A model generated the notes under the pieces. The model was not told the origin of the DNA and did not search any database. It was given only the letters and a program-made list of their open reading frames with translations. Positions 8,524 through 52,232 of a DNA stretch of 64,000 nt are shown here, in pieces. Position numbers and translations under genes: made by a program. Origin of the DNA: Hadesarchaea archaeon (lineage in GTDB: Archaea > Hadarchaeota > Hadarchaeia > Hadarchaeales > Hadarchaeaceae); NCBI GenBank assembly GCA_004375695.1, contig SOKQ01000021.1, positions 11,505-75,504 on the forward strand. Reading direction: 5' to 3'. Within the stretch, counting starts at the first letter, position 1. Each line of letters begins with the position of its first letter.

Positions 8524-10095
8524 TTATCTATCTTCAGCCCAAGTGAACTTTCGCTGGAGAGTTTTGGGGTAGATTTTTTTCCAATCGTATGAAACTCCTC
8601 CCGCCCACTTGACGTAGAGGCGCGGGTCGATGTAGGACTTGAGCGATGTACCGAGGTTGTAGTCTCGCGTAGCCTTTGTCAGCTTCACCTTGAGTCTAGC
8701 AGCTCTCATCCTCCCCTGAAGGCTCTTTATCCGCTTCGCACGTGAGCGGGAGCGGGGCCTTTCCCTGACTTCCTTCAGCTTCTCCTTCAGGACTTTCAGT
8801 CTGTTCACTTTATTTTCAAGGGATTCCTTCCAGTTCTTCGGGAGCTTTCGTTTGTGGTGGCAGGTGATCGCCGCTTCAAGATTCGCCATCTTGGCCACAT
8901 ACTTCTTCTCGAAGTCTGTATCTTCCGGTCGAACCTTGGAATTGGCTAGATAGTCTCTGACGCTCTTCGAGGCGTGATAAGTCCTGAAGACCTTAGCCGT
9001 GAGCCCTGGCATCACTTGACCTAAGAAAGCGTTTACGTGCTCCGAGCGGACTCCCGAGAAAATGGGCGCCCTAGGCTTCCCGATGAAGGACTTCAGGTTG
9101 CTCACGACTTGAGCAGGCGGCCTGATGGTCCTGACCCACCTCACCGAGTCCTTGCCCAGGAAGTTGAATTTTACCCGTCCAGAGTGGTCTATCTTGACGT
9201 GTGCACCCCTCAGCGTTACTGCGCCAACGGTGTCAGCTTCATCCTTGTCCTTCTCGTCGCCGACCCTCGTCTTCAGATTATCTATCAAGTAAGATACGGT
9301 CGCGGTCTTGCGCTGAGCGAGGTCCTCCGAGGCCAAGCTCCCCTCGATGTGTTGCCGAACCCTTTCAACGAGCTCCTCCAGCTCTCGGGCCTTGTTGAAC
9401 TTTTCGATCTCGCGCTCTTGTTTGAATCGCGCGGTGTCGGCTATCCATAAATACTTAAGTTCCTCACTGAGCTTGTCTTGCCACTTGGCTATCCACATGG
9501 CATTCGGATCGAAGGCCCTTTCCTTCCAGCGCTTCCCGTTTGGAGGTGTTGGGGTGGGGGCATCGAGTGACAGGTTTAGAATTATATCCTCATAGGCGAC
9601 TCTTGGCTTCCATCTTCCTCGAAACGGATGCTTTCCCCTACCCATGAAAATGCTAGGGGGTTCGACGGTGTAGCCGATCTCTACCCGTTCACCGTTAAGC
9701 ACAGCGTATCCGTACTTTTCCTTGTTGGCTTCCCGAATTTTCTTCCTTGCTTCAGCCAACGCTTTTCGCTCCTCGCGTGACATGTTTTCCTTTTTGATTT
9801 TTTCCTGCTCGACCCAGCGTTGAATCTCGGAGAAATCGAAGTCTTCTATTTTAGAGGGAGTTTCAACCCCTAGGGCTTTGGAGAAGTCTTCCACAAAGTT
9901 CCTGGCGAAGACCGGGTCTTTCACGTAGTCAGTACCCAGTTTCTTGACCCATGCGACGGCCATCTCTTCTTGGTCTGGAGCTAAAGAGAGTTTCTTCCCC
10001 TTATAGCGGATGGTGAAGCCTCGGGGTTCGTAGGTAGGGATGAGAACACCATTGTGAATCAGTTGCTTTATTCTGGTAGGTTGCGGCATCTGCAT
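8524..10095 (-). CDS. DNA topoisomerase IB, eukaryotic type
   Basis: EPPSIFMGRGKHPFRG core. FLGKDSVRW, GLTAKVFRTYHAS and the active-site Tyr context LGTSLKSYIDPRL match the eukaryotic Top1 catalytic domain. Confidence 0.85.
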   Translation of the reverse strand: MQMPQPTRIKQLIHNGVLIPTYEPRGFTIRYKGKKLSLAPDQEEMAVAWVKKLGTDYVKDPVFARNFVEDFSKALGVETPSKIEDFDFSEIQRWVEQEKIKKENMSREERKALAEARKKIREANKEKYGYAVLNGERVEIGYTVEPPSIFMGRGKHPFRGRWKPRVAYEDIILNLSLDAPTPTPPNGKRWKERAFDPNAMWIAKWQDKLSEELKYLWIADTARFKQEREIEKFNKARELEELVERVRQHIEGSLASEDLAQRKTATVSYLIDNLKTRVGDEKDKDEADTVGAVTLRGAHVKIDHSGRVKFNFLGKDSVRWVRTIRPPAQVVSNLKSFIGKPRAPIFSGVRSEHVNAFLGQVMPGLTAKVFRTYHASKSVRDYLANSKVRPEDTDFEKKYVAKMANLEAAITCHHKRKLPKNWKESLENKVNRLKVLKEKLKEVRERPRSRSRAKRIKSLQGRMRAARLKVKLTKATRDYNLGTSLKSYIDPRLYVKWAGGVSYDWKKIYPKTLQRKFTWAEDR

Positions 10096-24517: not shown

Positions 24518-24766
24518 CCGTTATTTACTAGCGTGGACATGGGGGCTTTTTCGAATAAGCAACTAGTTAACTTAGGCTTTTCACCCTTGTCCTATTTGAG
24601 AAACGTTATTGGGTTTCAGCTGAGTTGTCCTATTTAGGGCACATGCCCGCTTAAATTGACAATACCCTTGGCAACCAGATGGCTAAATGAAGTTTTTCTC
24701 GGGTGGCATGTCTAACTTTAGACAATCACAAAATTTCTTAAGCTCGCGTGACAACCTTTTCTCGGT

Positions 24767-24896
24767 GGGCCGGTGGATCAGCCTGGAAATGAAGGGGAAA
24801 CATTTCCTCGTCAACAGAATGATCGTCCGCTTGGCAAATTGTAGAATCCATCCAAATTGCGGGAGGTCGCGGGTTCAAATCCCGCCCGGTCCACCA
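24767..24896 (+). tRNA. tRNA-Ala(GGC) with two introns (D-loop and canonical 37/38), CCA encoded
   Basis: Acceptor GGGCCGG/CCGGTCC with G3:U70. Anticodon arm TCCGC-TTGGCA|21-nt intron|T-GCGGG. T-arm GCGGG-TTCAAAT-CCCGC. The D-stem halves (GATC) are separated by about 31 extra nt. Confidence 0.7.
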
Positions 24897-24944
24897 CTTT
24901 TGAACTGTAGAGGATTTATACCAACTCAACTCAAATTCATTTTG

Positions 24945-25049
24945 GGGCCCGTGGTCTAGTGGTTATGAGGGAGTTGGCGTAGCCGCGCCCTAACAAACGT
25001 CGCCTTGACATGGCGAAGTTCCCGAGTTCGAATCTCGGCGGGCCCACCA
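24945..25049 (+). tRNA. tRNA-Val(GAC) with about 29-nt intron at non-canonical position (about 24/25 in D-stem), CCA encoded
   Basis: Acceptor GGGCCCG/CGGGCCC, discriminator A. Anticodon arm TCGCC-TTGACAT-GGCGA. T-arm CCGAG-TTCGAAT-CTCGG. An insert at 24969..24997 interrupts the D-stem. Confidence 0.65.
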
Positions 25050-25051
25050 CC

Positions 25052-25057
25052 TTTTTT
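25052..25057 (+). terminator. oligo-T (T6) tract after tRNA-Val
   Basis: Archaeal-type oligo-T terminator directly after the tRNA 3' end. Confidence 0.3.
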
Positions 25058-38135: not shown

Positions 38136-38546
38136 TCACTCGCCCATCACGAAAATCGCGAGTCTGCGGGTACGGGGGCCATCCTGCTCGATCACCAAAA
38201 AGCTCTGCCAAGTGCCCCGAACTACGCGCCCATCGGCAATCGGCAGGACTCGAGAGGAACCTATGAAAGCTGACTTCAGGTGCGCGTGCGCATTGTCATC
38301 GATGCGGTCGTGCTGATATCCCCCACGCACCGGCGCGAAGTCATCGAGTTTGTTTAATAAATCCTGCTTGAGCCCGCTTTCGTTCTCGTTCAGCACGAGC
38401 GAGGCCGTCGCATGAGGAAGTTGCACGATGAGCAGACCATTTTTTATGCCGGATTCTCGAACTGCCGAGGTGACCTTGCTCGTTAGATCGATTACCTCGC
38501 GCGCCTTGCTCGTTGAAAAGCTCAGCTCCTTGAACCATGTTTTCAT
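38136..38546 (-). CDS. YjbQ/UPF0047 family protein (secondary thiamine-phosphate synthase-like)
   Basis: 136 aa. LLIVQLPHATASLVLNENES...DDNAHAHLKS conserved YjbQ pattern. Confidence 0.7.
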   Translation of the reverse strand: MKTWFKELSFSTSKAREVIDLTSKVTSAVRESGIKNGLLIVQLPHATASLVLNENESGLKQDLLNKLDDFAPVRGGYQHDRIDDNAHAHLKSAFIGSSRVLPIADGRVVRGTWQSFLVIEQDGPRTRRLAIFVMGE

Positions 38547-38561
38547 AAAATCACAGTTTGG

Positions 38562-39467
38562 TCACTGTTTTTTGGGTCGTGCTTCCCCATAATACTCCAC
38601 TGTTCTCCTGACCCCATCCTCAAGCTTCACGGTGGGGGCCCAAGACAATTCACGTTTCACCAAGCTTATGTCAGCTTGAGTTCGCTCGACGTAATTTTCT
38701 AGTGGATTTGGCACGTATTTGATTTTTAGCGGCTTTACTTCTTGTATCAACTTCGCCACCTCATTGAAAGACGTTTCTCTCCCGGTTCCAACGTTGAAAA
38801 CAAAAGTCCCATCCTTTCCCGCTGCAAGGACAAGTGCCCTAACAATATCATCCACATGGGTAAAATCCCTCGTCTGGGAACCATCGCCGTAAATGGTGAA
38901 TTCATCGTTAAGGATCATCTGGGTTATTACATTTGCATACTTTCCCTTCGCCCGCTCGTGGGGCCCGTAGACAGAGAAGAAGCGCATCCCTGCCGAAGAA
39001 ACGCCGTGAAGCTGGTGGTACACTCGCGCCAGGCGTTCCATCGCAAGTCGGGCCTCGGTGTAGTAGTCGAACGGCTCGGTCTGCACGTCCTCGCGATTGG
39101 GTCTCGGACAGCCACGATACATGCTCGAGCTGGATGCGTAGACGACTTTTGCTTGGTTCCGCTTGGCGAGCTCCATCACGTTCATGAAGCCACTTATCGC
39201 CTCTCCGACGAGCAGGGGGTTATCGCGGTACATGGGCGAGCTGGAGGGAATGCCAAGGTGAAAGATCAGCTCGGGTTGAAGCTTCAATTTTAGGAGCTCT
39301 GTGCAGGACCCCTGAACGGTTTTTACCCGGTCGCGAACCTTCTCCAAGTTCTCCACCGTCCCCGTCGAAAAATTATCGAGCACCGTGACATCGTCGCCCC
39401 GCCCGACAAGCGCCTCAACGAGGTTTGAGCCTATGAAGCCGGCACCGCCCGTGACGAGCACTCGCAT
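38562..39467 (-). CDS. NAD-dependent epimerase/dehydratase (SDR, nucleotide-sugar)
   Basis: MRVLVTGGAGFIGSNLV Rossmann start and a YxxxK catalytic dyad. Confidence 0.75.
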   Translation of the reverse strand: MRVLVTGGAGFIGSNLVEALVGRGDDVTVLDNFSTGTVENLEKVRDRVKTVQGSCTELLKLKLQPELIFHLGIPSSSPMYRDNPLLVGEAISGFMNVMELAKRNQAKVVYASSSSMYRGCPRPNREDVQTEPFDYYTEARLAMERLARVYHQLHGVSSAGMRFFSVYGPHERAKGKYANVITQMILNDEFTIYGDGSQTRDFTHVDDIVRALVLAAGKDGTFVFNVGTGRETSFNEVAKLIQEVKPLKIKYVPNPLENYVERTQADISLVKRELSWAPTVKLEDGVRRTVEYYGEARPKKQ

Positions 39468-39603
39468 TTGTGACCTCCGTTCTCCCTTCGCTTGGAACCT
39501 TATAATAATTCGGCTTTGAAATCGGTAGTTCGGTGGGTGAGGTTCGGATGTTCGCAGGCTTTGTCTATTTTAGTGTGAGTATGAAAAATAAAGAGGGGTA
39601 GAG

Positions 39604-40533
39604 ATGAAAGTTCTGGTAACTGGAGGTGCTGGTTTTATTGGTTCACATTTGGTCGACGAACTTCTAGCTAGGGGCCACTCCGTTACAGTGCTTGACGACC
39701 TCTCCAGCGGCACCATGGACAACTTGAAAACTCACACAGGCGAGCCTGCTTTCCGATTCATCCAAGGCGATATCAGGGATGCCGAAGCGGTCGAACGGGC
39801 TTTGGCGGGGGTCGATGCCGTCATCCACGAGGCGGCGATGATGAGTGTGCCCCTCTCGATCGAGGACCCGGAGCTCGCTCAGAGCGTGAACGTTGATGGG
39901 ACGCTGGCGCTGCTCAAAGCCAGCTTGGGGCATGGTGTCAAGCGATTCGTCTACGCTTCGTCCTGTGCGGTCTACGGCGAACAGGCCGAACTCCCGATAA
40001 ACGAGGATGCGCCACCCCAACCGCTTTCACCTTACGCCAGCTCGAAACTCGCGGCTGAGAAAAACTGTCTGGCCTTCCATGAGCGGGAGGGGCTGGAGAC
40101 CGTTTGCCTGCGCTATTTCAACGTATACGGGCCAAGACAAACTTTCGGTGAATATGCGGGCGTAATGATGAAATTCCTCGAATGTCTCCGCACCGACCAA
40201 CCACCGATCATTTACGGCGACGGCGAACAGACGCGGGATTTCATCTTCGTGGGTGATGTTGCCGAGGCGACCTTGCTTGCCCTCGAGCGGAAAGGCGTGG
40301 CGGGAGAGGTAATGAACATCGGAACGGGAGAGGCGACGAGCATCAACAAACTTTGCGAGGTGTTCTTGAGGTTGGTTGGTAAGAGCGAACTAAAGCCAAT
40401 CTACGAGGTTCCCCGGGGTGGCGACATCAAGCACAGTCTGGCCGATATCACGAAAGCTAGGAAGCTCCTAAGTTTCAAACCAAAGACCTCGCTCGAAGAG
40501 GGGATTAAAAAATTGCTGGGGGGCCTCGAGTGA
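39604..40533 (+). CDS. NAD-dependent epimerase/dehydratase (UDP-glucose 4-epimerase-like)
   Basis: MKVLVTGGAGFIGSHLV and YASSKLAAE (YxxxK). Divergently transcribed from the previous gene. Confidence 0.75.
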   Translation: MKVLVTGGAGFIGSHLVDELLARGHSVTVLDDLSSGTMDNLKTHTGEPAFRFIQGDIRDAEAVERALAGVDAVIHEAAMMSVPLSIEDPELAQSVNVDGTLALLKASLGHGVKRFVYASSCAVYGEQAELPINEDAPPQPLSPYASSKLAAEKNCLAFHEREGLETVCLRYFNVYGPRQTFGEYAGVMMKFLECLRTDQPPIIYGDGEQTRDFIFVGDVAEATLLALERKGVAGEVMNIGTGEATSINKLCEVFLRLVGKSELKPIYEVPRGGDIKHSLADITKARKLLSFKPKTSLEEGIKKLLGGLE

Positions 40534-41186
40534 AAGTCTGGGTAGTGATGCCAGCATACAACGAGGAGCGATCAATCGGGAGGGTGCTCGATGTTCTTAA
40601 GCGCGAGGGACGGCGCAACATCATCGTGGTGGACGACGGGTCGAGCGACCGAACCGCGGAAATCGCTCGCTCGAAGAGAGCACTTGTCATTCGTCATAAA
40701 AAGAATAGAGGGTTGGGGGCGGCGCTTCGAACTGGGCTAGCGAAGGCTCGAAAGCTGGGTGCGGACTGCGCTGTCACCTTCGACTCCGATGGGCAGCACG
40801 ACCCGAAAGCAGTCGGACTTCTAGTCAAGGCCCTAAACGACGCCGATCTCGTGATAGGGGTCCGGCGGCACTTGGGAATCCCGCTCCACAAGCGCCTCGG
40901 CAACTTCGGCCTGAACTTGATAACGTGGTTTTTCAGCGGGGTGCTTACGGACTCGCAATCTGGCTCGAGGGCTTTTAACAAGCGGGCGCTCAAGCGAATC
41001 CGTATCCGCAGCAATCGCTACGAGGTTTCGTCTGAGATTATTATTCAAGCGAGGCGGAAGGGGCTGAGGCTCCGGGAGGCGCCGGTCAAGTGTTTTTACA
41101 CCAAATACTCCAAAGCGCGAGGGACGACCATCGTCAGTGGGTTCAAGATTTTTTGGGCGCTGGTTAGGCAGGGGATGTCTAAATGA
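40530..41186 (+). CDS. glycosyltransferase family 2 (dolichyl-phosphate hexosyltransferase-like)
   Basis: VVMPAYNEE...IIVVDDGSSD GT-A DxD region, 218 aa. Confidence 0.7.
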   Translation: MKVWVVMPAYNEERSIGRVLDVLKREGRRNIIVVDDGSSDRTAEIARSKRALVIRHKKNRGLGAALRTGLAKARKLGADCAVTFDSDGQHDPKAVGLLVKALNDADLVIGVRRHLGIPLHKRLGNFGLNLITWFFSGVLTDSQSGSRAFNKRALKRIRIRSNRYEVSSEIIIQARRKGLRLREAPVKCFYTKYSKARGTTIVSGFKIFWALVRQGMSK

Positions 41187-42355
41187 ATATACTATACATC
41201 ACAGAAATTTACCCGGATCCCAAGCGAGGAATCGGCGTATGGGGCGGGGGGGAGCGACAATTCTATGAGATTTCCCGCCGGGTGGCCGACCGCGGACATA
41301 ACGTTACAATTTTAACGTGTCGTTTCCCCGGCCAGCCTGCCGAGGAGATTGTCGATGGTATGAAGATACATCGAATCGGGCTAAGCAGGAACCCAAAGAC
41401 CGGCGGTGCACGCAAGACCGTTCTGCCTATCTTTTCCTATATTATTAAGACGGCAAGACGAGCGATGAAATTGGCCCCTGACGTGATTCACTGCAACACG
41501 TACTTTCCAGTATACCCGGGCAAAATGGCGGCACGATCGAAAGGGGGACAGCCGGTGAGCACGTGCCACCACATCTCGGGCCTGCGGGGGGGGATGGAGC
41601 GCCAGCGCTCGCTGGTGTGGGGGTTGCTGGGACACCTCGCCACGACCATCGCCGCCCGACTGCCGCACGACCGAATAATCTCCGTTTCGCCGCAGTGCAG
41701 ACAAAAGCTGATTGATCTCGGCATCCGGGAAGACAAGATCACCGTGATCCCTAACGGAGTAGACTTGAAGCTCTTCGACTCAACTCGCGTGGAGAAAGTT
41801 CCTAACCAAATCCTGTATGTGGGGCGCCTGGTGGACTTCAAGCACGTGGACTGGCTCATTCAAGCATTTTCAGAGGTTTTGAAGGAGGTGCCTAGCGCCA
41901 AGCTGAAGATAGTCGGTGGAGGTCCCGAAAGAGGCAATCTAGAGGTGCTCGTTAAGAAGCTAGGTCTCCAGGCGCACGTCACTTTTACTGGTCTTACCCC
42001 AACCTACGATGCCGTGACGCGTTACTACAACGAGTCCGAGGTCTTCGTCTTGCCCAGCACAGTTGAGGGGGAAGCCATCGTGCTTAAGGAGGCGATGGCG
42101 GCGCGTCTGCCTCTTATAGCGATGAACATCCCCGGCTCCGGTGTCTTGAGCTTGATGCGGGACGGGAAAAATGGGTTCCTGCTCGAGCCTGGGCGACCGG
42201 AGCTCATCGCTGAGAAGCTGGTTCACCTCCTGCAGAATGAAGAATTGAGGAAAGAGATGGGGGCAGCGGGCAGAAAATTTGTTGAGAAGTACGATTGGGA
42301 TGTCATTGCCGAGCGAACCCTTCAGGTGTACCAAAAGGCGATAGAGGATAGGTGA
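41183..42355 (+). CDS. glycosyltransferase family 4
   Basis: GT-B fold with an E-x7-E region (EGEAIVLKEAMAARLPLIA). Confidence 0.75.
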   Translation: MNILYITEIYPDPKRGIGVWGGGERQFYEISRRVADRGHNVTILTCRFPGQPAEEIVDGMKIHRIGLSRNPKTGGARKTVLPIFSYIIKTARRAMKLAPDVIHCNTYFPVYPGKMAARSKGGQPVSTCHHISGLRGGMERQRSLVWGLLGHLATTIAARLPHDRIISVSPQCRQKLIDLGIREDKITVIPNGVDLKLFDSTRVEKVPNQILYVGRLVDFKHVDWLIQAFSEVLKEVPSAKLKIVGGGPERGNLEVLVKKLGLQAHVTFTGLTPTYDAVTRYYNESEVFVLPSTVEGEAIVLKEAMAARLPLIAMNIPGSGVLSLMRDGKNGFLLEPGRPELIAEKLVHLLQNEELRKEMGAAGRKFVEKYDWDVIAERTLQVYQKAIEDR

Positions 42356-43155
42356 TAGAGGTGCCCCTTCTCAGTGTTATTATGTCGGTTTTTAATGGGG
42401 AGAAATATGTTAAAGAAACGGTTGAGAGCATCCTAAATCAATCGTTCCGGGATTTCGAGTTCATAATAGTGAACGATGGCTCAACAGATGGGACGCCAAG
42501 GATATTGAGAAACTTTGATGATGATAGGATAAAAATAATTGATCAGGAAAACCAAGGGCCAGCGAAGGCGCGAAACAGAGCTATAAGGGTCTCGAAAGGG
42601 AAATACATCGGGATAATAGATTGCGGAGATGTAGCCTTTAAGAAAAAAATGGAAATACAAATAAATTTTCTTGAAAGAAATAAGGAGATTTATGGTGTAG
42701 GTGCTTGGGCCAATATCGTTGATGAAGACGGAAAAATAGTTGGAGTAATGGAGCAATCTACAGAATTTAAAGATATAAAGAAAACAATCCTAAAATCTAA
42801 CACATTCATACACTCCTCTATGGTGTTTAGGAGAAAGCTGTTTGATAAAATTGGACTTTACGATGAGTCATTCAAATTCGCTCATGACTATGATCTAGTA
42901 ATAAGAGCAGTAAGAAAATTCAAAATTGTTAACATACCGCAAGTTTTATTAAACTATCGGATTTCAGAGGAAAGCATCTCTTTTCAGAAGCGAAAACAAC
43001 AGTCGTATTATGCTTTGAAAATAAGAGCACGGGCTCTGGGTCATGGTTATCCTACGTGGCAGTGCATTTATCTTATAAGACCTTTCTTTTCTTTTCTAGT
43101 ACCAGCTGATTTGAAGAATGTTATCGTGAGGAGATTTTTGTGGCGCCCTCGTTAA
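42352..43155 (+). CDS. glycosyltransferase family 2
   Basis: LSVIMSVFNGEKYV...IIVNDGSTD GT-A motifs. Locally low GC. Confidence 0.7.
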   Translation: MIEVPLLSVIMSVFNGEKYVKETVESILNQSFRDFEFIIVNDGSTDGTPRILRNFDDDRIKIIDQENQGPAKARNRAIRVSKGKYIGIIDCGDVAFKKKMEIQINFLERNKEIYGVGAWANIVDEDGKIVGVMEQSTEFKDIKKTILKSNTFIHSSMVFRRKLFDKIGLYDESFKFAHDYDLVIRAVRKFKIVNIPQVLLNYRISEESISFQKRKQQSYYALKIRARALGHGYPTWQCIYLIRPFFSFLVPADLKNVIVRRFLWRPR

Positions 43156-43212
43156 CGTATTTCGTTTAAGCGATATGAAACTTTATCTGATAATGCGATA
43201 AAAATGTCCACC

Positions 43213-44250
43213 TCATTTTTTCTCTTGTACCAACGCTTTATTATAAATATTCATAATTTGTCTTGCACAAATATCCCATCTGAATCTTCTTTCAACCCTT
43301 TTTCTTCCTTTTTGTCCCATTTTTCGTGCTAGGGCCTTATCAGATAGAACGGTAAGTATTTTTTGAGATAGATCATTAGAATCCCCCGTTTGAAAAAAAA
43401 GCCCAGCATCTCCCACTACCTCTGGGGGGGATCCTTGATTCGACGCTACAACGGGGATTCCGCACGCCATCGCTTCGGTTAAAACATATCCGAAGCCTTC
43501 ACAGATAGAAGTAAATGCAAAAACATTAGCAGCGGCGTAATATTCATTTATCTTTTCAGCAAACGCTGGAAAGATTACAGAGCTTCTTAATTGCGGTGAA
43601 TTCTTAACAAAAGATTTAATATTTAATTTTAATGGCCCTTCGCCCAACATAATGAACTTAGCGCTTGGGTACTTGGGCAATATTAAAGGAATGGCATTTA
43701 AAAATGTAAATGGGTCTTTCCAAGGAATAAAACGTCCGACCCAAAGCATCACTGGATTATTTTTTAATCCCAATTTTTTTCTTATGTATCTCCCTGATAT
43801 CGATGGATTGAATTTGTTCAAATCTACTCCATGGTAAACGGTATATGTTTTTATTCCATAATTCTTCTTCAACCTAGAGGCGGCAAATTGGGAAATTGAG
43901 ATTACTGCACGTGCATTTCTTGAGATTAAAGAAGTTAATTTATGCTCAATAACATGAAAAAAGTCAACTTTTTTAGATAACCCATATTCGTATTTAAGAA
44001 GATCTTTAGCCCCAACTCCATGTACTGTAAAAATATATGGAATACCAAAAAACTTATTGATGACTAGGGGTTTTAGCCCATGGCATGCATAATTCACATG
44101 TATTATATCCGCATTTTGGAATTCGCGGATAAAATGAAATGGATGCCTTAATGAAAATTGTGCAAATTTGACCGTGTGTCCCCTTTTAGTAAATTCTTTT
44201 GCGAGTTGGATAGAATATTCCCCAGGTGAATTGGTTATCACTATATTCAA
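43213..44250 (-). CDS. glycosyltransferase family 4
   Basis: GT-B C-terminal EGFGYVLTEAMACGIPVV. Very AT-rich gene. Confidence 0.7.
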   Translation of the reverse strand: MNIVITNSPGEYSIQLAKEFTKRGHTVKFAQFSLRHPFHFIREFQNADIIHVNYACHGLKPLVINKFFGIPYIFTVHGVGAKDLLKYEYGLSKKVDFFHVIEHKLTSLISRNARAVISISQFAASRLKKNYGIKTYTVYHGVDLNKFNPSISGRYIRKKLGLKNNPVMLWVGRFIPWKDPFTFLNAIPLILPKYPSAKFIMLGEGPLKLNIKSFVKNSPQLRSSVIFPAFAEKINEYYAAANVFAFTSICEGFGYVLTEAMACGIPVVASNQGSPPEVVGDAGLFFQTGDSNDLSQKILTVLSDKALARKMGQKGRKRVERRFRWDICARQIMNIYNKALVQEKK

Positions 44251-44265
44251 ACGAAACTCCTCATG

Positions 44266-44913
44266 TTAAATTTTCTTCTTCAAAATAGCAACGAGTATTA
44301 ATGCATTAACTCGAGGAGGGAGAAGCATCCTGCAAAGATTTAGAAAAATCCTGCCTTTAAGACTCTTCGGTTTATCAACATGTCGAACATAATAAAGATT
44401 CTTAATTTTAAAGCCAAAGCGCTTCGCAAGTTCAGCTAATGTCTCACCGTTGTGCCATATTATATGCCCGGGACTCATTTTTACTTTCAAACCAAAAAGC
44501 CCTTTAGTACAAAAAGTAGCGTAGTATGCGTTTGGTGTGGATATCACTAGAACTCCATCATCTCTCAAGTGCCGGCGCATATTTTCTAGAAATAACCCCT
44601 GGTTATTTACATGCTCGATTACTTCACCTGCAACAATCACATCAAATTTTTTCTCTAAATGTATATTTTCTGCATTGCCTAGGACAACATTGTAGCCACG
44701 CGACCGCAGCCTTTTGATGTTTTTTTCATCGCAGTCCACGCCAATAACTTTCCAGGCAACACTGGCTATTCGCTCATGTAACTCTCCAGGCTTTTCAAAA
44801 TCCGCGCTATAACCTGCACAACCTACATCGAGCACTTCGCGTCCTTTACATAAAGGTAAAATGATATCCTCTCGCCTTTCAATGATTTTTTTATTGCCCT
44901 TTCGTTTGCTCAA
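44266..44913 (-). CDS. class I SAM-dependent methyltransferase
   Basis: VLDVGCAGY motif I and DVIVAGEVIEHV motif II/post-I. Confidence 0.65.
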   Translation of the reverse strand: MSKRKGNKKIIERREDIILPLCKGREVLDVGCAGYSADFEKPGELHERIASVAWKVIGVDCDEKNIKRLRSRGYNVVLGNAENIHLEKKFDVIVAGEVIEHVNNQGLFLENMRRHLRDDGVLVISTPNAYYATFCTKGLFGLKVKMSPGHIIWHNGETLAELAKRFGFKIKNLYYVRHVDKPKSLKGRIFLNLCRMLLPPRVNALILVAILKKKI

Positions 44914-45646
44914 GCTTATCAGCCTCTTTTAAAGATCCGAAAGTTCCTATGTCGTATCTTGCCCCCTTAAACAAAAAACCATAGATTGTTGCCCCATCTT
45001 CCTTCATCAGCTGTATGGAATCCGTTAGCCATATCTCGTTGTGTTTTCCAAGATTTGTTTTTTCGATATATTCAAAGACCACAGGTTTTAAAACAAGCAA
45101 TCCTGCAATACTGAGATAAATGTTCTCCATTTTGTAGGACTGCGCTTCCTCCAGCGTCGGCTTTTCGATTATCCCAAGAACCTTGTTGTTCGCATCAATT
45201 TTAACTATCCCAAATCTTCTGGGGTCCTTGACGGGGTGCAAGACAAGCGTTGCGTCAGCTCTCTTCTCTTCATGAAATTTTACTATTTCCTTCATGACCT
45301 CGTAGGGTTTGAGGTAGTTGTCCCCATAAATGACTACAAAGTCCTCATTGCCGATGAAATCCTTGCCTTGGTAAACTGCATGCGCCGTCCCCTTCAACTC
45401 CTCTTGGATCTTGTATGAAATGTCGACCCCAAGCCTCTCGCCGGAACCGAGATAATCCATAATCGCCTCTTTCTTCCGTCCAACCACGACCAGAATTTCC
45501 CCTATGCCACCGGCTTTCAAGACGTTTATTGCATGCTCGATTACCGGCTTAGTGCCGACCCTTATCATCTCCTTCGGAATCGCTAAGGTTAGAGGCCTCA
45601 ATCGCATCCCCTCGCCAGCTGCTAGGACAATCGCTCTTTTTATCAT
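44891..45646 (-). CDS. sugar-phosphate nucleotidyltransferase (glucose-1-P thymidylyl/uridylyltransferase-like)
   Basis: LAAGEGMRLRPLTLAIPKEM signature. Confidence 0.75.
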   Translation of the reverse strand: MIKRAIVLAAGEGMRLRPLTLAIPKEMIRVGTKPVIEHAINVLKAGGIGEILVVVGRKKEAIMDYLGSGERLGVDISYKIQEELKGTAHAVYQGKDFIGNEDFVVIYGDNYLKPYEVMKEIVKFHEEKRADATLVLHPVKDPRRFGIVKIDANNKVLGIIEKPTLEEAQSYKMENIYLSIAGLLVLKPVVFEYIEKTNLGKHNEIWLTDSIQLMKEDGATIYGFLFKGARYDIGTFGSLKEADKLEQTKGQ

Positions 45647-45654
45647 GCAGATAC

Positions 45655-46539
45655 CTACTCTCTAACACCTCTTTCGGCTTTGATACGTTCGTTTATCTCG
45701 GTGACCGCTTTCAAGAGCTTTGGCTCACAACTCAATTTCTCAGAAAAACTGATAAACGCATCTAAATCCTTTGGAAGGCATTTGCCCCCGAAAGCTTTTC
45801 CATGGATTGTCCCGTATTTGCCGATTCGCTTGTCCATCCCGGCAACTTTGGCAACTAAGTTTGAATCAATTCCCAATCTCTGGCAAATGTAGTAGATCTC
45901 ATTCCAATAGGAGATCCGGCTGGCCAAAGCACAGTTACATGCATATTTGATCATCTCAGCCGTTTGTAGATCGGTTCGGATAATCGGAACTTTTAATGGC
46001 TCATACAATGCTTGAAGGACATCTCCGGAACGCTTGTCGAACTCCCCGATTACCACCCTATCCTCGCTGAAGAAGTCCCGGGCATATGATTTGTTGTCGG
46101 TCCAAGATCGATGAATTTCAGTAAGGAACTCCGGATTCACACACACTCCGATATCGGGGCCAACCTTCTTACCTGAGTGTTCTTCCAAAAGCGGAATAAC
46201 CACTTTTTCTGTTGTCGTGGGTAGCACAGTACTCTTAACGACCACCACGTGATAATCATTTTTTTCTTTCAGACAACGGGCTAGATTTTCAGTTACGGAT
46301 CTAATGTAAGATAAGTCAATTTTCCGATCTTTTGTGGGTGTTGGGAGGCACAAGAATGAGATATCAGACTCGCGAATAGCGTTGCTCAGCTCAGTGGTGG
46401 AATCAAGGCCTGAATTGCGAAGATTTTGAACCTTTTTTTCATCGATATCGTAGAATATCACTCGGTTTCCGAACTCTTTGAAACCCCTGCCGACGATTGT
46501 TCCCACAATACCGCTGCCGAGAATACTAATTTTCGCCAT
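45655..46539 (-). CDS. NDP-sugar dehydrogenase (UDP-glucose/GDP-mannose dehydrogenase family), short form lacking C-terminal domain
   Basis: ILGSGIVG Rossmann start and central GGKCLPKD catalytic-Cys motif. Only 294 aa against the usual 400+. Confidence 0.6.
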   Translation of the reverse strand: MAKISILGSGIVGTIVGRGFKEFGNRVIFYDIDEKKVQNLRNSGLDSTTELSNAIRESDISFLCLPTPTKDRKIDLSYIRSVTENLARCLKEKNDYHVVVVKSTVLPTTTEKVVIPLLEEHSGKKVGPDIGVCVNPEFLTEIHRSWTDNKSYARDFFSEDRVVIGEFDKRSGDVLQALYEPLKVPIIRTDLQTAEMIKYACNCALASRISYWNEIYYICQRLGIDSNLVAKVAGMDKRIGKYGTIHGKAFGGKCLPKDLDAFISFSEKLSCEPKLLKAVTEINERIKAERGVRE

Positions 46540-46582
46540 TCGTACACCCTTGTTATCGTATCTTCTAGCTTTTAATTAAAGT

Positions 46583-46783
46583 CTATTTCCCGATAAAGTT
46601 CCCAGCAGCCTTGACCAGCCACCCAGGCATCGGCACTATCCGCGCTATGAGCTTCAGATCGTCCTTCGTCACCGCTTTTGTTGCCAGGACCCACACCCCG
46701 TAGAATAGGAGGCTCGGTATCATGACGGCAAATGCTTCACGCCAGAGTGGCAGCACTAGATCCTCTCCCATGATTTCCCCCAC
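46583..46783 (-). pseudogene. duplicated 3' fragment of the Wzx-like flippase gene (about 51 C-terminal codons)
   Basis: Translation EAFAVMIPSLLFYGVWVLATKAVTKDDLKLIARIVPMPGWLVKAAGNFIGK is about 85% identical to the C-terminus of the 47376..48965 product. Confidence 0.6.
46590..46760. repeat. direct repeat copy 1 (about 170 bp, about 90% identical to 47383..47553)
   Basis: Nucleotide alignment by eye: catcggcactatccgcgctatgagc.tcagatcgtc.ttcgtcac.gcttttgttgc.aggacccacaccccgtagaa. Confidence 0.65.
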
Positions 46784-46837
46784 GATGTCGGGTCGAGCTT
46801 TCAGTAGATTTTATAGGCAACGGCAGACGAACAACCT

Positions 46838-47068
46838 TTGGTGTGGGAAATGAAAAAAAGATTTAACATCGTTATCGAAAGAGACGAAGATGGATATTAC
46901 GTGGCTTCGGTGCCCGAGTTACCGGGTTGCCATACCCAAGCTAAGAGCTTAGACGAACTGACCGCGCGTATGGACGAGGCAATCAAATTGTACCTCGAAG
47001 TTGAAAAAGAGGCTATTGATGTCAGCACTGAATTTGTTGGCGTGCAGGTAGTAGAGGTATCCATCTGA
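46838..47068 (+). CDS. hicB: HicB-family antitoxin (UPF0150)
   Basis: FNIVIERDEDGYYVASVPELPGCHTQAKSLDEL core. Confidence 0.75.
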   Translation: MVWEMKKRFNIVIERDEDGYYVASVPELPGCHTQAKSLDELTARMDEAIKLYLEVEKEAIDVSTEFVGVQVVEVSI

Positions 47069-47295
47069 GACTCAAACCCCTCTCAGCAGAAAAAGTCATT
47101 AAAGTTTTAGAAAAGATCGGTTTCAAAAGAGTGAGGCAAAAGGGAAGTCATCTTTTTCTCAAACACTTGGATGGGCGAATTACTGTAGTACCGATTCATA
47201 AGGGTGAGGAAATTGGGCGCGGTTTGTTGAGGAAGATAGTCAGGGATTCCAAGCTAACTAGGGAAGAATTTCTGAAATTTATTGAGGAAGTTTAG
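47065..47295 (+). CDS. hicA: HicA-family toxin (YcfA-like), no canonical start codon found
   Basis: Frame translates LKPLSAEKVIKVLEKIGFKRVRQKGSHLFLKH...V, a HicA fold. It overlaps the hicB stop. No in-frame ATG/GTG/TTG follows the upstream stop at 47029, so the start is unclear. Confidence 0.55.
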   Translation: MRLKPLSAEKVIKVLEKIGFKRVRQKGSHLFLKHLDGRITVVPIHKGEEIGRGLLRKIVRDSKLTREEFLKFIEEV

Positions 47296-47375
47296 CTGCG
47301 GATCCGATTTCAAGAAAAAAGCTACACGGAACGGAGATCGTCGTTTCTAAGCAATAAACGTCCATTACGAACTAG

Positions 47376-48965
47376 TCACCTCCCAACAAATCTCCCAGCA
47401 GCCCTGACCAGCCACTCGGGCATCGGCACTATCCGCGCTATGAGCCTCAGATCGTCTTTCGTCACTGCTTTTGTTGCTAGGACCCACACCCCGTAGAACA
47501 CGAGGCTCGGTATCACTACCACAAATGCCTCCGGCCAAGGTGACAGCACCAAGACGGATTTGAGTCCAAAAATGATGAGCAATGTGAGCACCCCCCCAGT
47601 TACCGTTTTGAGCAGCGATAAAGCCGGCACGGTGAATTTAACGAGCTTCCGCGCGTAATAGAACATCAGGACTAGGCCGAGCGTGTAGGCGGAGAAGGTC
47701 GCTATCGCTGCTCCTTCGATTCCATAAGTCGGGATCAACACCAGGTTTCCCGCTAGGTTCAGCCCGGCCATCAGGGCAACGACTTTTGTGTTGATAATCG
47801 GCTTGCCTATCCCATTTATGGTGCTCACGAGGATGGCGTATAGCATGTAAACGATTGCGGCCCCGGCGAGAATCTGGAGAACCGTTGTCCCGGCCAAGTA
47901 TCTCGAGCCGAACAGCAGGTTGATAACTATGTCTGGAAACGCTATGAAGACGAGCGCCGCCGGGATGATTAAAATAAATGAAAATTTGATCAGAAAGTGT
48001 AGCGCGTTCCTCAAGAGTTTCCGCTCGCGCCTCGCCCAGAGCTCGGATATCATCGGAAAGAGAACGACCACCAAGGGGGTCACGAGGTACCACAGGATGC
48101 GAGCGGCCGGCTGCGCGGTCTGGTAGAAGCCGACCTGTTTCGAGGACCAAAAACCGGCGATCATCAGGGTATCCGTGTAGCCGATGATAAGTCCCCCAAG
48201 TCCACCGATGAAAACCGGCAGCGCAAACACGAACAGCTTTTTGATCAGTGATTTTGTAATCTGGACTTTTTCCTTGATGACTCGGGGATAGCCCCTCCAG
48301 AAGAGGAAAAACCCGAGAACCGCCACGACCGATAAAGCGAGCATATAGGCGTAAGCGGCTCCCTCGATACCGATACCGAACAGGCCGACGAGGAGGATCG
48401 CCGAGAGTAAAACGAAGAATATTTCAAAGAAACTCATCAACGCATACGCCGGCATGTTCTGAAAGCCCTGAAATGTCCACCTGAAAGTGAAGGAAAAAAT
48501 CGCCACGAAGAACCAGATGCTCAAAATTTTGACCACGAGCGACGCATTTGCCATCCCGACAATAGCCAGATCGGCAGGGCTGGAAAATGCGAGGACAATC
48601 TGATCGGAAAATACGAACAACATCACTGCGACCAAAAACGCGAGGATTGCCTGGAAGAGCAGGATAAATGTCATGGACGATTTTATTCTGCCGTACTGCC
48701 CCCTGAGCTTGAACTCGGGGATGTGCTTCACCACGGCCGAACCCAGGCCAAAATCACGGAAGAGCGCGAAGAAGGAGACCAACGCGATGGCCGTGTAAAA
48801 AAAGCCGTACTCTTCAACGCTGAACGAACGTGCGAGGAACATTCGCAGCAGGAACGCTATGAAGCCCGATGCGATGAGCGCCACGAAAACTATGGCACTG
48901 CCCTTGACCAGGCGCCTAGCGTAGCTTTTGGGGTCGGGCATTTCATCCTCCTCGAACGGTTCCAC
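47376..48965 (-). CDS. polysaccharide biosynthesis protein, Wzx-like MOP flippase
   Basis: 529 aa, about 14 TM helices, MATE/Wzx-like pattern. Confidence 0.75.
   Translation of the reverse strand: MEPFEEDEMPDPKSYARRLVKGSAIVFVALIASGFIAFLLRMFLARSFSVEEYGFFYTAIALVSFFALFRDFGLGSAVVKHIPEFKLRGQYGRIKSSMTFILLFQAILAFLVAVMLFVFSDQIVLAFSSPADLAIVGMANASLVVKILSIWFFVAIFSFTFRWTFQGFQNMPAYALMSFFEIFFVLLSAILLVGLFGIGIEGAAYAYMLALSVVAVLGFFLFWRGYPRVIKEKVQITKSLIKKLFVFALPVFIGGLGGLIIGYTDTLMIAGFWSSKQVGFYQTAQPAARILWYLVTPLVVVLFPMISELWARRERKLLRNALHFLIKFSFILIIPAALVFIAFPDIVINLLFGSRYLAGTTVLQILAGAAIVYMLYAILVSTINGIGKPIINTKVVALMAGLNLAGNLVLIPTYGIEGAAIATFSAYTLGLVLMFYYARKLVKFTVPALSLLKTVTGGVLTLLIIFGLKSVLVLSPWPEAFVVVIPSLVFYGVWVLATKAVTKDDLRLIARIVPMPEWLVRAAGRFVGR
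47383..47553. repeat. direct repeat copy 2 (within 3' end of intact flippase gene)
   Basis: See copy 1. Confidence 0.65.
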
Positions 48966-49040
48966 CGTGATATCTGCCTAAATCATTAAAAATAGTGAGC
49001 CCGAGGGATTCATCTAAGCGGGAAACAGGCAATCAAGCTT

Positions 49041-49796: not shown

Positions 49797-49855
49797 TCTA
49801 TCCTATCACCCATTTTCACTATTTTGATTTAAGATTGATGTAGAACGGCACAAAA

Positions 49856-49935
49856 TGGCGGGCCCGCGGGGATTCGAACCCCGGATTTGCAGCTTTCTTC
49901 GCCAAGATAGAAGGCTTGCGGGTGTTGCCACTTGC
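49856..49935 (-). repeat. partial tRNA-Arg(TCT) copy A (3' two-thirds, retains intron, carries a 13-nt insertion, ends ...CGGGCCC-G-CCA)
   Basis: Minus strand reads GCAAGTGGCAACACCCGCAAGCCTTCTA[TCTTGGCGAAGAA]AGCTGCAAATCCGGGGTTCGAATCCCCGCGGGCCCGCCA. It matches the full gene at 52143..52232. No matching 5' acceptor strand is found upstream. Confidence 0.6.
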
Positions 49936-50018: not shown

Positions 50019-50582
50019 ATGCTACGAGAATTCAGGAAATTCAAAGGCTGGGTAATCCTCGAGTTCTTCCTCACTCATCCTAGCACCAAAATCCACTTCA
50101 AGGAACTTGTCCGCAAGCTCAGAGTGAGCCCAAGAACGGCACAGATATATCTCAAGACATTTGAGGACGATGGAATTTTGACGAAAGAGAGAGTCGGGAA
50201 CCTGACAATTTTTTCTTTAAATAACGAGTTGCAACTGGTTAGAGAATTAAAAAAAGCGCATTTTCTCCTCGCGCTGAATGAACTCGGGTTTCTTGATCAT
50301 TTTTTAAAAGGGAATTCTGGGGCTGTATCTCTAGCGTTATACGGTAGCTGCGCGGAGGGAACCTACGATGAAAAGAGTGATATTGATTTTTTAGTCATTA
50401 AACGCAGGGAAGTGGACAAACGTTCATTCAAAGAACTCGAAAAGTGGGCGAAGAAGGAGGTCCTCGTCACATGCATGGAACCCGTAGAATGGAATAGGAA
50501 AGCCAAGGAAAAAGATCCGTTTTATCGCAACGTCGTCAGAAAACACATCCTGCTCTATGGGGCCGATTTGGTGGTAGAGTGA
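50019..50582 (+). CDS. minimal nucleotidyltransferase (MNT) with N-terminal wHTH
   Basis: ALYGSCAEGTYDEKSDIDFLVI (GS-x9-13-DxD) Pol-beta-type NTase motif. Confidence 0.7.
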   Translation: MLREFRKFKGWVILEFFLTHPSTKIHFKELVRKLRVSPRTAQIYLKTFEDDGILTKERVGNLTIFSLNNELQLVRELKKAHFLLALNELGFLDHFLKGNSGAVSLALYGSCAEGTYDEKSDIDFLVIKRREVDKRSFKELEKWAKKEVLVTCMEPVEWNRKAKEKDPFYRNVVRKHILLYGADLVVE

Positions 50583-51007: not shown

Positions 51008-51061
51008 AACGTCTTGTTTAGATATCGCAAAAAACTAGCTCAAATAAGCCCCCTTAAAAGT

Positions 51062-51113
51062 GGGCCCGCGGGGATTCGAACCATAGGTCTGCAGCTTAGA
51101 AGTCTGCCGCCTG
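51062..51113 (-). repeat. partial tRNA-Arg(TCT) copy B (3' part, intron-less, degenerate T-arm)
   Basis: Minus strand reads AGGCGGCAGACTTCTAAGCTGCAGACCTATGGTTCGAATCCCCGCGGGCCCAC. It matches the spliced form of the 52143..52232 gene from the D-stem 3' strand onward. Confidence 0.55.
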
Positions 51114-51145: not shown

Positions 51146-52114
51146 ATGGTATTTAATATAAAGTCAGAGAAATCCATATATATTTATAAGACTGATATGG
51201 ATTTGACTAATATGGTAAATCAAGACATATTACTTGAGAAACTGCGTTCGATCCTCCTTGAACGGGTGAGTTTAGAGAACATCCCCGAGCCCGTGTGGAA
51301 GCGTACGGCGGCCCTTAACACATGGGGCACGAACGCGGTAGAGGGAAGCACGATCAGTTGGGAAGACGCGCAGCGCTTGCTCATTGATGGCAAGGGGGTC
51401 CCAGACAAGCCGGTGAGGGACATCATGGAGACGATTCAGCACGAGCGTGCATTCCGCTCGCTCCCGGAGCTTCGAGGGACGCCCTTGGATTTGAAACGCA
51501 TCCTCCAACTCCACGAATCCGTCTTCAGAGGAATCCTGTCCGACGCTGGCCAGTGGCGGCGGGCAAACGTCCGGGTGAGGGGGGCCGCCTTTACACCTCC
51601 GAGGATGGAAAAGGTCTTGGCAGAACTCGAGGTTTATGAGCAGGAGTACAGGAAACGGGATGTTGCAGGAGATGGGGTATTCAGGCTGGGCGCTTGGATG
51701 CATTTCGAGTTCGAACGCATTCACCCATTCACGGATGGAAACGGGCGGGTCGGCAGGCTGCTGCTGAACCTTCACTTCCTCAATCACAACTGGCCGCCAA
51801 TACATGTCCTCCCCCGCCATAGGGATAACTACCTCCACGCGCTGAACGAGGCTGCAAAGGGTAACCTCTCACCGCTGGAGCGCCTCCTGAAGCTCCTGAT
51901 GGGCGCTAGCCTCGTGGACCTTCTGCATCAACTGGGAACCTCCGTGGACGAGCTAATGGACCTGAAGGATATCTCAAAATTCGTGCCCTATGGACCAAAG
52001 TACTTGGCGCTCCGATGTCAACAGGGTGCCATACCCGCAGTTAAGACGGGCAGGGAATGGCAGACGAGCAGAAGGGTGCTTGATCTTTATTCCAAGCTTG
52101 TAGCTAGAAAGTAG
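51146..52114 (+). CDS. Fic/DOC family protein
   Basis: Canonical Fic motif HPFTDGNGRVGR. Start uncertain (several in-frame ATGs up to about 51212). Confidence 0.8.
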   Translation: MVFNIKSEKSIYIYKTDMDLTNMVNQDILLEKLRSILLERVSLENIPEPVWKRTAALNTWGTNAVEGSTISWEDAQRLLIDGKGVPDKPVRDIMETIQHERAFRSLPELRGTPLDLKRILQLHESVFRGILSDAGQWRRANVRVRGAAFTPPRMEKVLAELEVYEQEYRKRDVAGDGVFRLGAWMHFEFERIHPFTDGNGRVGRLLLNLHFLNHNWPPIHVLPRHRDNYLHALNEAAKGNLSPLERLLKLLMGASLVDLLHQLGTSVDELMDLKDISKFVPYGPKYLALRCQQGAIPAVKTGREWQTSRRVLDLYSKLVARK

Positions 52115-52142
52115 TTGGGATTTAGCTCCATTTGAAAAGGCG

Positions 52143-52232
52143 GGCCCGCGGGGATTCGAACCCCGGATCTGCAGCTTAGAAGGCTTGCGGGTCTGAGACT
52201 TGCCGCCTTATCCAGCTAGGCCACGGGCCCAT
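52143..52232 (-). tRNA. tRNA-Arg(TCT) with 16-nt intron inside the anticodon stem (about 29/30), CCA not encoded
   Basis: Minus strand reads GGGCCCG-TG-GCCT-AGCTGGATA-AGGC-G-GCA[AGTCTCAGACCCGCAA]GC-CTTCTAA-GCTGC-AGATC-CGGGG-TTCGAAT-CCCCG-CGGGCCC-G. After excision the product is 74 nt. Confidence 0.65.

Follow-up and report, generated by a model that had tools for sequence, protein, structure and literature searches.

Predicted non-canonical and multiple introns in two adjacent tRNA genes of a Hadarchaeota lineage

The locus and its host

The stretch of DNA analysed here, 64,000 nucleotides long and referred to as the window, is a portion of a 120-kb metagenome contig (JGI 3300022538). Its segment 24767-25049, on the forward strand, consists of two adjacent tRNA genes, tRNA-Ala(GGC) followed by tRNA-Val(GAC), with the features given below, where BHB stands for bulge-helix-bulge.

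24730..24742, forward strand: A/T-rich promoter-like element AAAATTTCTTAAG, 25-37 nt 5' of tRNA-Ala, read from the sequence
24767..24896, forward strand: tRNA-Ala(GGC) gene, three exons and two predicted introns, CCA at 24894-24896, G3:U70
24789..24819, forward strand: predicted Ala intron 1, 31 nt, in the D-loop after G19 plus 2 nt, relaxed BHB, best junction
24837..24857, forward strand: predicted Ala intron 2, 21 nt, canonical position 37/38, strict BHB
24915..24920, forward strand: TTTATA box, 25-30 nt 5' of tRNA-Val, conserved in related spacers
24945..25049, forward strand: tRNA-Val(GAC) gene, two exons and one predicted intron, CCA at 25047-25049
24968..24996, forward strand: predicted Val intron, 29 nt, position 23/24 in the 3' strand of the D-stem, strict hBHBh'

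Both genes encode their CCA and are followed by a run of T (24898-24901 after tRNA-Ala, 25052-25057 after tRNA-Val), as had been noted in the initial annotation of this DNA. Related loci, the distant L008 among them, have the AAAATTTCTTAAG element equally far upstream, and its position suggests that it may be the promoter of tRNA-Ala; the TTTATA box is a candidate for the same function upstream of tRNA-Val.

The D-aminoacyl-tRNA deacylase (DTD) gene located just 3' of the tRNA pair has nearest relatives, 67-90% identical, in metagenome-assembled genomes (MAGs) that bear the label Hadesarchaea or Hadarchaeota. The phylum is placed in the kingdom Methanobacteriati, outside the TACK group, so the crenarchaeal or TACK origin implied by the initial annotation is not borne out. 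The neighbouring genes are of the archaeal housekeeping kind and encode FttA/aCPSF1, SepF, a PUA protein, LSm, DTD2, FtsZ, SecE, Spt5, the ribosomal proteins L11/L1/L10, AlaRS and a class I aminoacyl-tRNA synthetase with a leucyl-type editing domain.

Gene structures and intron junctions

In its unspliced form the tRNA-Val gene scores 53.3 bits against Rfam RF00005, with 31 nt unaligned in the D-arm and one D-stem mismatch, and ARAGORN calls tRNA-Val(GAC) once 29 nt are taken out. Every pair of junctions was scanned for a BHB motif, defined by a 4-bp helix with a 3-nt bulge 3' of each strand and a cut after the second bulge nucleotide, and one strict hBHBh' motif, at 24968-24996, yields a sensible tRNA. 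Its central helix H pairs GUUA (24962-65) with UAAC (24991-94), the bulges are UGA and AAA, each cut after its second nucleotide, and the outer helix h and the intron helix h' (GGG/CCC) have 3 bp each. The product of excision reads GGGCCCG-UG-GUCU-AGUGGUUA-UGAC-G and onwards, and is matched by orthologues that lack the insert: in ten loci (L003/L021, L004/L020, L005, L015, L022, L025, L027, L029, L030 and L032) the intronless D-arm equals the spliced window sequence, with the exception of L025, where the D-loop is 1 nt shorter. The intronless genes submitted to Rfam (L003, L004, L005 and L015) score 68 bits each. The reading of this gene as tRNA-Val(GAC) with an insert between the D-stem strands therefore stands, the insert being 29 nt long at position 23/24.

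An intron of 29-31 nt occupies the same site in six further loci (L018, L019, L024, L028, L031 and the distant L008), where H, both bulges and the first three pairs of h' are conserved and the interior varies; the h' pair 24972:24987 appears as A.G in L018, C-G in L019, A.A in L024, A-U in both L028 and L031, and G.U in L008. When the Val intron was shuffled, 0.2% of trials gave an H of four pairs together with an h' of at least three at this junction. In free energy, the BHB conformer is 2.4-6 kcal/mol less favourable than the minimum-free-energy fold and should therefore be accessible rather than dominant. The junction had been put one nucleotide downstream, at 24969..24997, which gives the same product; the intron of L031, however, starts with G and not A, so that only a cut between 24967 and 24968 (after G23) keeps the mature sequence. 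This comparison resolves the 1-nt ambiguity and settles the predicted Val junction to a single nucleotide.

The unspliced tRNA-Ala gene is called neither by ARAGORN nor by Rfam at gathering or permissive thresholds and, being invisible to both, it will be wrongly listed as missing in MAG annotations of this clade. ARAGORN calls tRNA-Ala(GGC) only once 30-32 nt have been taken out of the D-loop, and after this removal it reports by itself the 21-nt intron at 37/38. The gene identity, the G3:U70 pair and the approximate sizes and positions of the two inserts (31 nt in the D-loop, 21 nt at 37/38), all proposed previously, are upheld by this result. The exons form an acceptor GGGCCGG/CCGGTCC with G3:U70 and the discriminator A73, a D-stem GAUC/GAUC, an anticodon stem UCCGC/GCGGG with a loop that the intron divides into UUGGCA and U, a variable loop AGGUC and a T-arm GCGGG-UUCAAAU-CCCGC. 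The minimum-free-energy fold of the 130-nt precursor, like that of most orthologues, consists of the cloverleaf plus both intron structures.

The BHB motif of the 37/38 intron combines a central helix UUGG/CCAA (four of four pairs), the bulges CAA and AUU, cut after their second nucleotides, an h' of 2 bp and an outer helix that is the 5-bp anticodon stem itself. It is retained in 12 orthologues whose introns differ freely in interior sequence and in length (17-21 nt). Strict BHB motifs, present in all intron-bearing orthologues, are thus common to the Val and the Ala 37/38 introns. Among close relatives, the interior of the 37/38 intron (24837-24857) diverges much faster than either the spacer 24897-24944 or the D-loop insert, with many substitutions and lengths of 17-21 nt, as compared to 1-3 changes in the 48-nt spacer.

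The D-loop insert of tRNA-Ala has a less regular site. Its central helix consists of the pairs C24783-G24817, U24784-A24816 and G24785-C24815 and a G24786.A24814 mismatch (CUGG/ACAG, three of four pairs). The 5' bulge is clean (A24787, A24788 and A24789, cut after A24788), and the 3' cut, between A24819 and U24820, falls in a 2x2 internal loop facing G24781 and C24782, with no true bulge. The outer helix is 1 bp and h' is 3 bp, extended to 10 bp in L025; three shifts of the junction upstream, by 1-3 nt, yield the same product. In this form the site resembles the non-canonical intron sites of the HBh' type (PMC4090602). An equally good motif arises in 15% of shuffled inserts, and the motif bases are invariant in 10 lineages; since shuffles do as well and the motif bases never vary, the motif taken alone is weak evidence.

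The insert as a whole forms a long irregular stem that continues the D-stem, the minimum-free-energy fold in nine orthologues. Outward from the D-stem, this structure comprises A24780-U24820, a 2x2 loop GC/AA, the helix CUG/CAG (24783-85/24815-17), a 4x1 loop GAAA/A, the intron stem UGA/UCA (24790-92/24811-13), a 1x1 mismatch and a hairpin GGGGAA/UUCCUC (24794-99/24804-09) closed by a tetraloop. A24798-U24805 is replaced by G-C in L004, and in L025 a G.U becomes A-U and an A.G becomes G.U. The covariation, although suggestive of the extended stem, is thin, with one compensatory pair among six alignable sequences and 103 of 500 shuffles reaching the observed score; the base of the stem is invariant and therefore uninformative. 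The hairpin GGAAATG/CATTTCC, which the initial annotation had assigned to the insert, reaches -5.8 kcal/mol versus -15.5 kcal/mol for the extended stem, about 10 kcal/mol above the minimum, and is broken by uncompensated changes in three lineages (L003, L004 and L024); it has to be abandoned in favour of the extended stem of CUG/CAG, UGA/UCA and GGGGAA/UUCCUC, which is favoured in the models by free energy and weakly by covariation. A reading of the insert as a K-turn or C/D-box structure was rejected on inspection, with the GA/AG tandem and the box spacing both misfitting.

Independent assemblies supply nine sequence variants of the gene with this insert; across them the exons hardly vary and the upstream element is conserved. 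Two related loci have the same GAUC/GAUC D-stem without the insert, with the D-loops AGUCUGGUAU (L030) and AGUUGGUAU (L032). Excision of 31 nt predicts a mature D-loop AGCCUGGAAU that shares with them the pattern GG-NAU-GAUC, a pattern that excisions of 30 or 32-33 nt fit less well. Near the 3' junction a single substitution occurs, A24819 to U in L031; it is intronic under the junction given by the BHB rule, 24789-24819, and only with this junction is the mature sequence unchanged. The fold of the insert and the length expected of the mature D-loop are established, and the BHB rule together with sequence conservation places the exact junction, in all likelihood, at 24789-24819.

A third tRNA gene in the window also has an intron outside position 37/38.

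52141-52230, reverse strand: tRNA-Arg(UCU), with a 16-nt intron at 52185-52200 in the non-canonical position 29/30

Its motif has an H of GCGG/CCGC and an h' of 3 bp. ARAGORN miscalls this gene as tRNA-SeC(TCA), and Rfam aligns it with a 27-nt insert in the anticodon loop. With this intron, all three tRNA genes of the window have non-canonical introns.

Proposed splicing and alternative explanations

On the basis of these comparisons, we give a probability of about 0.85 to the reading that the locus contains two functional, separately promoted Hadarchaeota tRNA genes interrupted by three short introns of the archaeal type. Folding of each precursor would place all exon-intron junctions in bulges that adjoin a 4-bp helix; EndA, the endonuclease of tRNA splicing, would then cleave after the second nucleotide of each bulge, and the exons would be joined by a ligase of the RtcB type. 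The products would be a 78-nt tRNA-Ala(GGC) with the D-loop AGCCUGGAAU and a 76-nt tRNA-Val(GAC) with the D-arm GUCU-AGUGGUUA-UGAC. The Ala D-loop insert would be cut by EndA at a relaxed site, with a good bulge on the 5' side and an internal loop on the 3' side. The general reading of the inserts as archaeal introns of the protein-endonuclease type agrees with the in-silico excisions, which restore Ala(GGC) and Val(GAC) from sequence; the expected BHB structures are found cleanly for two of the three introns (Val and Ala 37/38) and only loosely for the Ala D-loop insert.

EndA and an RtcB-type ligase are the presumed enzymes. The initial annotation had called for a heterotetrameric endonuclease, a requirement that is at odds with the alpha4-type EndA with an L3 loop reported for Hadesarchaea in PMC5829648. 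Enzymes whose specificity would suit introns of this kind are alpha2beta2 with the L1 loop, epsilon2 with L2, and forms bearing L3. A phmmer search of all six-frame open reading frames with the M. jannaschii EndA, a query checked against PDB 1A79, found no EndA in the window or in 32 loci; the window and the fetched loci yielded no RtcB gene either. Protein database searches for EndA returned enzymes of Methanococcales, DPANN and Methanosarcinales, none of them labelled Hadarchaeota. Both tRNA genes are contiguous and colinear and are thus not split or permuted genes; nor do the inserts fit group I, group II or homing-endonuclease introns, as they measure 21-31 nt and Rfam finds no intron family in the window.

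Most of the alternatives concern the Ala D-loop insert. That it is something other than an ordinary BHB intron, being either cut without a true 3' bulge by a homotetrameric EndA of the L3 type or retained or otherwise processed, we regard as unlikely. If true, an L3-type cut at this site would represent a substrate class new for that enzyme type, and a retained or otherwise processed insert would give a tRNA with an extra arm in the D-loop. We know of no experimental demonstration that an L3-type alpha4 enzyme cleaves a site of this kind; as a natural relaxed substrate, the site could be used to ask if an L3 loop broadens the range of substrates of alpha4 EndA. Outright retention, which would leave the mature tRNA with an additional stem-loop on the variable part of its D-loop, would be in keeping with the lack of a strict BHB at the outer junctions and with a well-conserved insert and flanks that form a stable stem continuing the D-stem. 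That conservation, however, is no greater than in the neighbouring intergenic spacer, no tRNA model takes the gene with the insert, and the loop has a normal length of 9-10 nt in related lineages that share the D-stem. In addition, a well-formed 5' bulge of 3-4 nt lies at a distance of exactly four positions from the 3' site, which is what the BHB rule demands, and introns are common in the neighbouring tRNAs of the same genome; we therefore consider retention highly improbable. The insert might also leave in two steps or elsewhere, with 24795-24813 removed first and about 12 nt later at the CUG/CAG bulge-helix-loop, or with a junction 1-2 nt off 24789-24819. A strict BHB does exist inside the insert, at 24795-24813 (19 nt, H AUGA/UCGU with four of four pairs, h' of 4 bp); apart from it, sequence reasoning and the scan identified only the D-stem itself as a perfect 4-bp BHB helix around the Ala D-loop junctions. 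The weakness of the outer motif and a G24810 to A substitution in L026, which turns the G.U pair of the inner BHB into A-U, speak for this route. The inner BHB as the sole intron was rejected, as ARAGORN recognises no tRNA in the product and L025 weakens the motif: its G24810 to U change breaks one of the four central pairs and simultaneously adds a pair to the competing extended stem, which is moreover the minimum-free-energy fold. Nested tRNA introns of such a size have no precedent known to us, and we judge this route very unlikely; it would lead to the same end product as one-step excision at 24789-24819, the reading that we prefer.

The remaining two alternatives question the genes themselves. 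The failure of standard tRNA finders to detect tRNA-Ala could indicate a decaying pseudogene, with another, intact copy serving the GCC and GCU codons. Against this, the exons are nearly invariant and fold perfectly, and at least 11 loci conserve G3:U70, the positions of tertiary pairs, the 37/38 BHB and the element upstream, with intron interiors that change freely, even though the neighbouring protein in these loci has diverged down to 72% identity. A pattern search of the metagenome, furthermore, found no second gene with the 5' half of this tRNA-Ala, and the pseudogene explanation is hardly credible. For an artefact of assembly or a chimera, nothing speaks beyond the origin of the window in a metagenome assembly, and the same structures recur, with lineage-specific substitutions, in independent JGI, NCBI, ENA and Logan assemblies, leaving this explanation a negligible chance.

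Relation to known tRNA introns

On the euryarchaeote side, the textbook rule is a single strict intron at 37/38, handled by an alpha4 or alpha'2 enzyme. For crenarchaea, non-canonical and multiple tRNA introns were reportedly described by Marck and Grosjean in 2003 and by Sugahara in 2007 and 2008. Such introns are documented in Thermoproteales, in other TACK lineages, in ARMAN and in some Asgard lineages (PMC4090602, PMC4033280, PMC11291895), an example from Thermoproteales being the tRNA-Pro of Pyrobaculum islandicum with introns at 25/26, 37/38 and 56/57 (PMC4090602, PMC4033280). The genes studied here share with those of Thermoproteales the short introns (16-31 nt) outside 37/38, the possibility of more than one per gene, rapid gain or loss between relatives, and splice sites that are either strict hBHBh' or, as the Ala D-loop site may be, relaxed HBh'/hBH. 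They differ in their host, a member of Hadarchaeota (Methanobacteriati), for which the literature predicts an alpha4 enzyme with an L3 loop and not an alpha2beta2 enzyme with the crenarchaeal loop.

The closest known case is that of Hadesarchaea archaeon YNP_N21, for which the main text of Kaneta et al. 2018 (PMC5829648) describes a marked rise in disrupted tRNA genes and an alpha4 EndA with L3. The phylum is the same, non-canonical and multiple tRNA introns are present, and a homotetramer-type EndA is reported there; the tRNA prediction in that work means that the phenomenon has already been reported for the phylum. In contrast to the present analysis, that main text gives genome-level counts for one genome, in a figure, and it does not describe the Ala D-loop and Val 23/24 introns, their motifs or their presence and absence among relatives. 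Atabeyarchaeia and Freyarchaeia, Asgard lineages in which multi-intron tRNA genes also occur (PMC11291895), belong to another phylum and have a far heavier intron load, at 92-95% of genes; in the window, all three tRNA genes have non-canonical introns. The Ala D-loop site is similar to the relaxed substrates BHL and hBH of the ARMAN-2 epsilon2 EndA and the crenarchaeal alpha2beta2 EndA (PMC3239211, PMC3488258, PMC3241643) in having one good bulge-helix unit and the other splice site in a loop, but differs from them in having its 3' site in a 2x2 internal loop adjacent to the D-stem.

The observation is real and exceeds chance, and it belongs to a kind of gene interruption already known in archaea; the Ala and Val introns leave the current understanding of archaeal tRNA splicing unchanged, and with them a phylum of the euryarchaeote side gains concrete, clearly delimited cases of tRNA genes that have non-canonical or multiple introns. 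The initial annotation of the Ala and Val inserts is partly supported, being right in kind and wrong on the insert fold, the lineage and the enzyme type.

Intron turnover across Hadarchaeota

The Val intron is present in seven of the sampled loci and precisely absent in ten, with a patchy distribution among lineages whose DTD protein is 67-100% identical to that of the window, which implies repeated precise loss, or gain. The intron sets of Ala(GGC) vary as well, with D-loop and 37/38 introns in the clade of the window, a 37/38 intron only in L008 and L030, and a 53/54 intron only in L032. Judged by these sequence comparisons, the intron content of the two genes turns over quickly in the phylum. 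A single-gene DTD tree, meant to date intron loss, was set aside as too poorly resolved to count events. The presence and precise absence of the Val intron among close relatives nevertheless provide clean material for a study of intron loss and gain.

Several related loci have distinctive arrangements of the tRNA pair. In L032 (1240-1347), from a distant Hadarchaeota MAG labelled Hodarchaeaceae, the tRNA-Ala(GGC) lacking the D-loop and 37/38 introns has a 31-nt intron at 53/54 in the T-arm, with an H of four of four pairs and a 10-bp intron helix. In L028 (385-1341), an open reading frame of 318 amino acids with a weak match to LAGLIDADG_3 lies between tRNA-Ala and tRNA-Val, which are separated in other lineages by the 48-nt spacer. 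It has the look of a mobile insertion that lies between the tRNA genes and inside neither. Two loci have breakpoints within a tRNA gene: in L006 (2400-2445), only the last ~13 nt of tRNA-Val are left upstream of dtd, and in L027 (1295-1313) only the last ~12 nt of tRNA-Ala are left, followed by the conserved spacer and an intact tRNA-Val. Both breakpoints are consistent with integration or excision at tRNA 3' ends.

Other features of the window

Two partial copies of the 3' part of tRNA-Arg(UCU) are located on the reverse strand at 49854-49925 and 51056-51105. One of them is intronless and has a degraded T-stem; the other begins inside the 29/30 intron (ACCCGCAA) and has a 13-nt BHB intron of its own at 37/38. 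The intervals between the tRNA-Arg copies contain a Fic/DOC gene (51146-52114) as well as a nucleotidyltransferase/HTH gene (50019-50582); no integrase was seen. The partial copies look like remnants of elements that were serially integrated into tRNA-Arg.

A full-length, eukaryote-type topoisomerase IB is encoded at 8524-10095 on the reverse strand, with matches to the Pfam families Topoisom_I_N, Topoisom_I and Topo_C_assoc (E 1e-59 to 1e-64). From about 38500 to 49000, the window contains a cluster of glycosyltransferase, sugar-nucleotide and polysaccharide-flippase genes, within which a 169-nt direct repeat occurs at 46588-46756 and 47381-47549 with 86% identity. The GC content is 0.40-0.42 at 42-46 kb versus about 0.54 in the rest of the window, and the cluster is probably a laterally acquired surface-glycan island.
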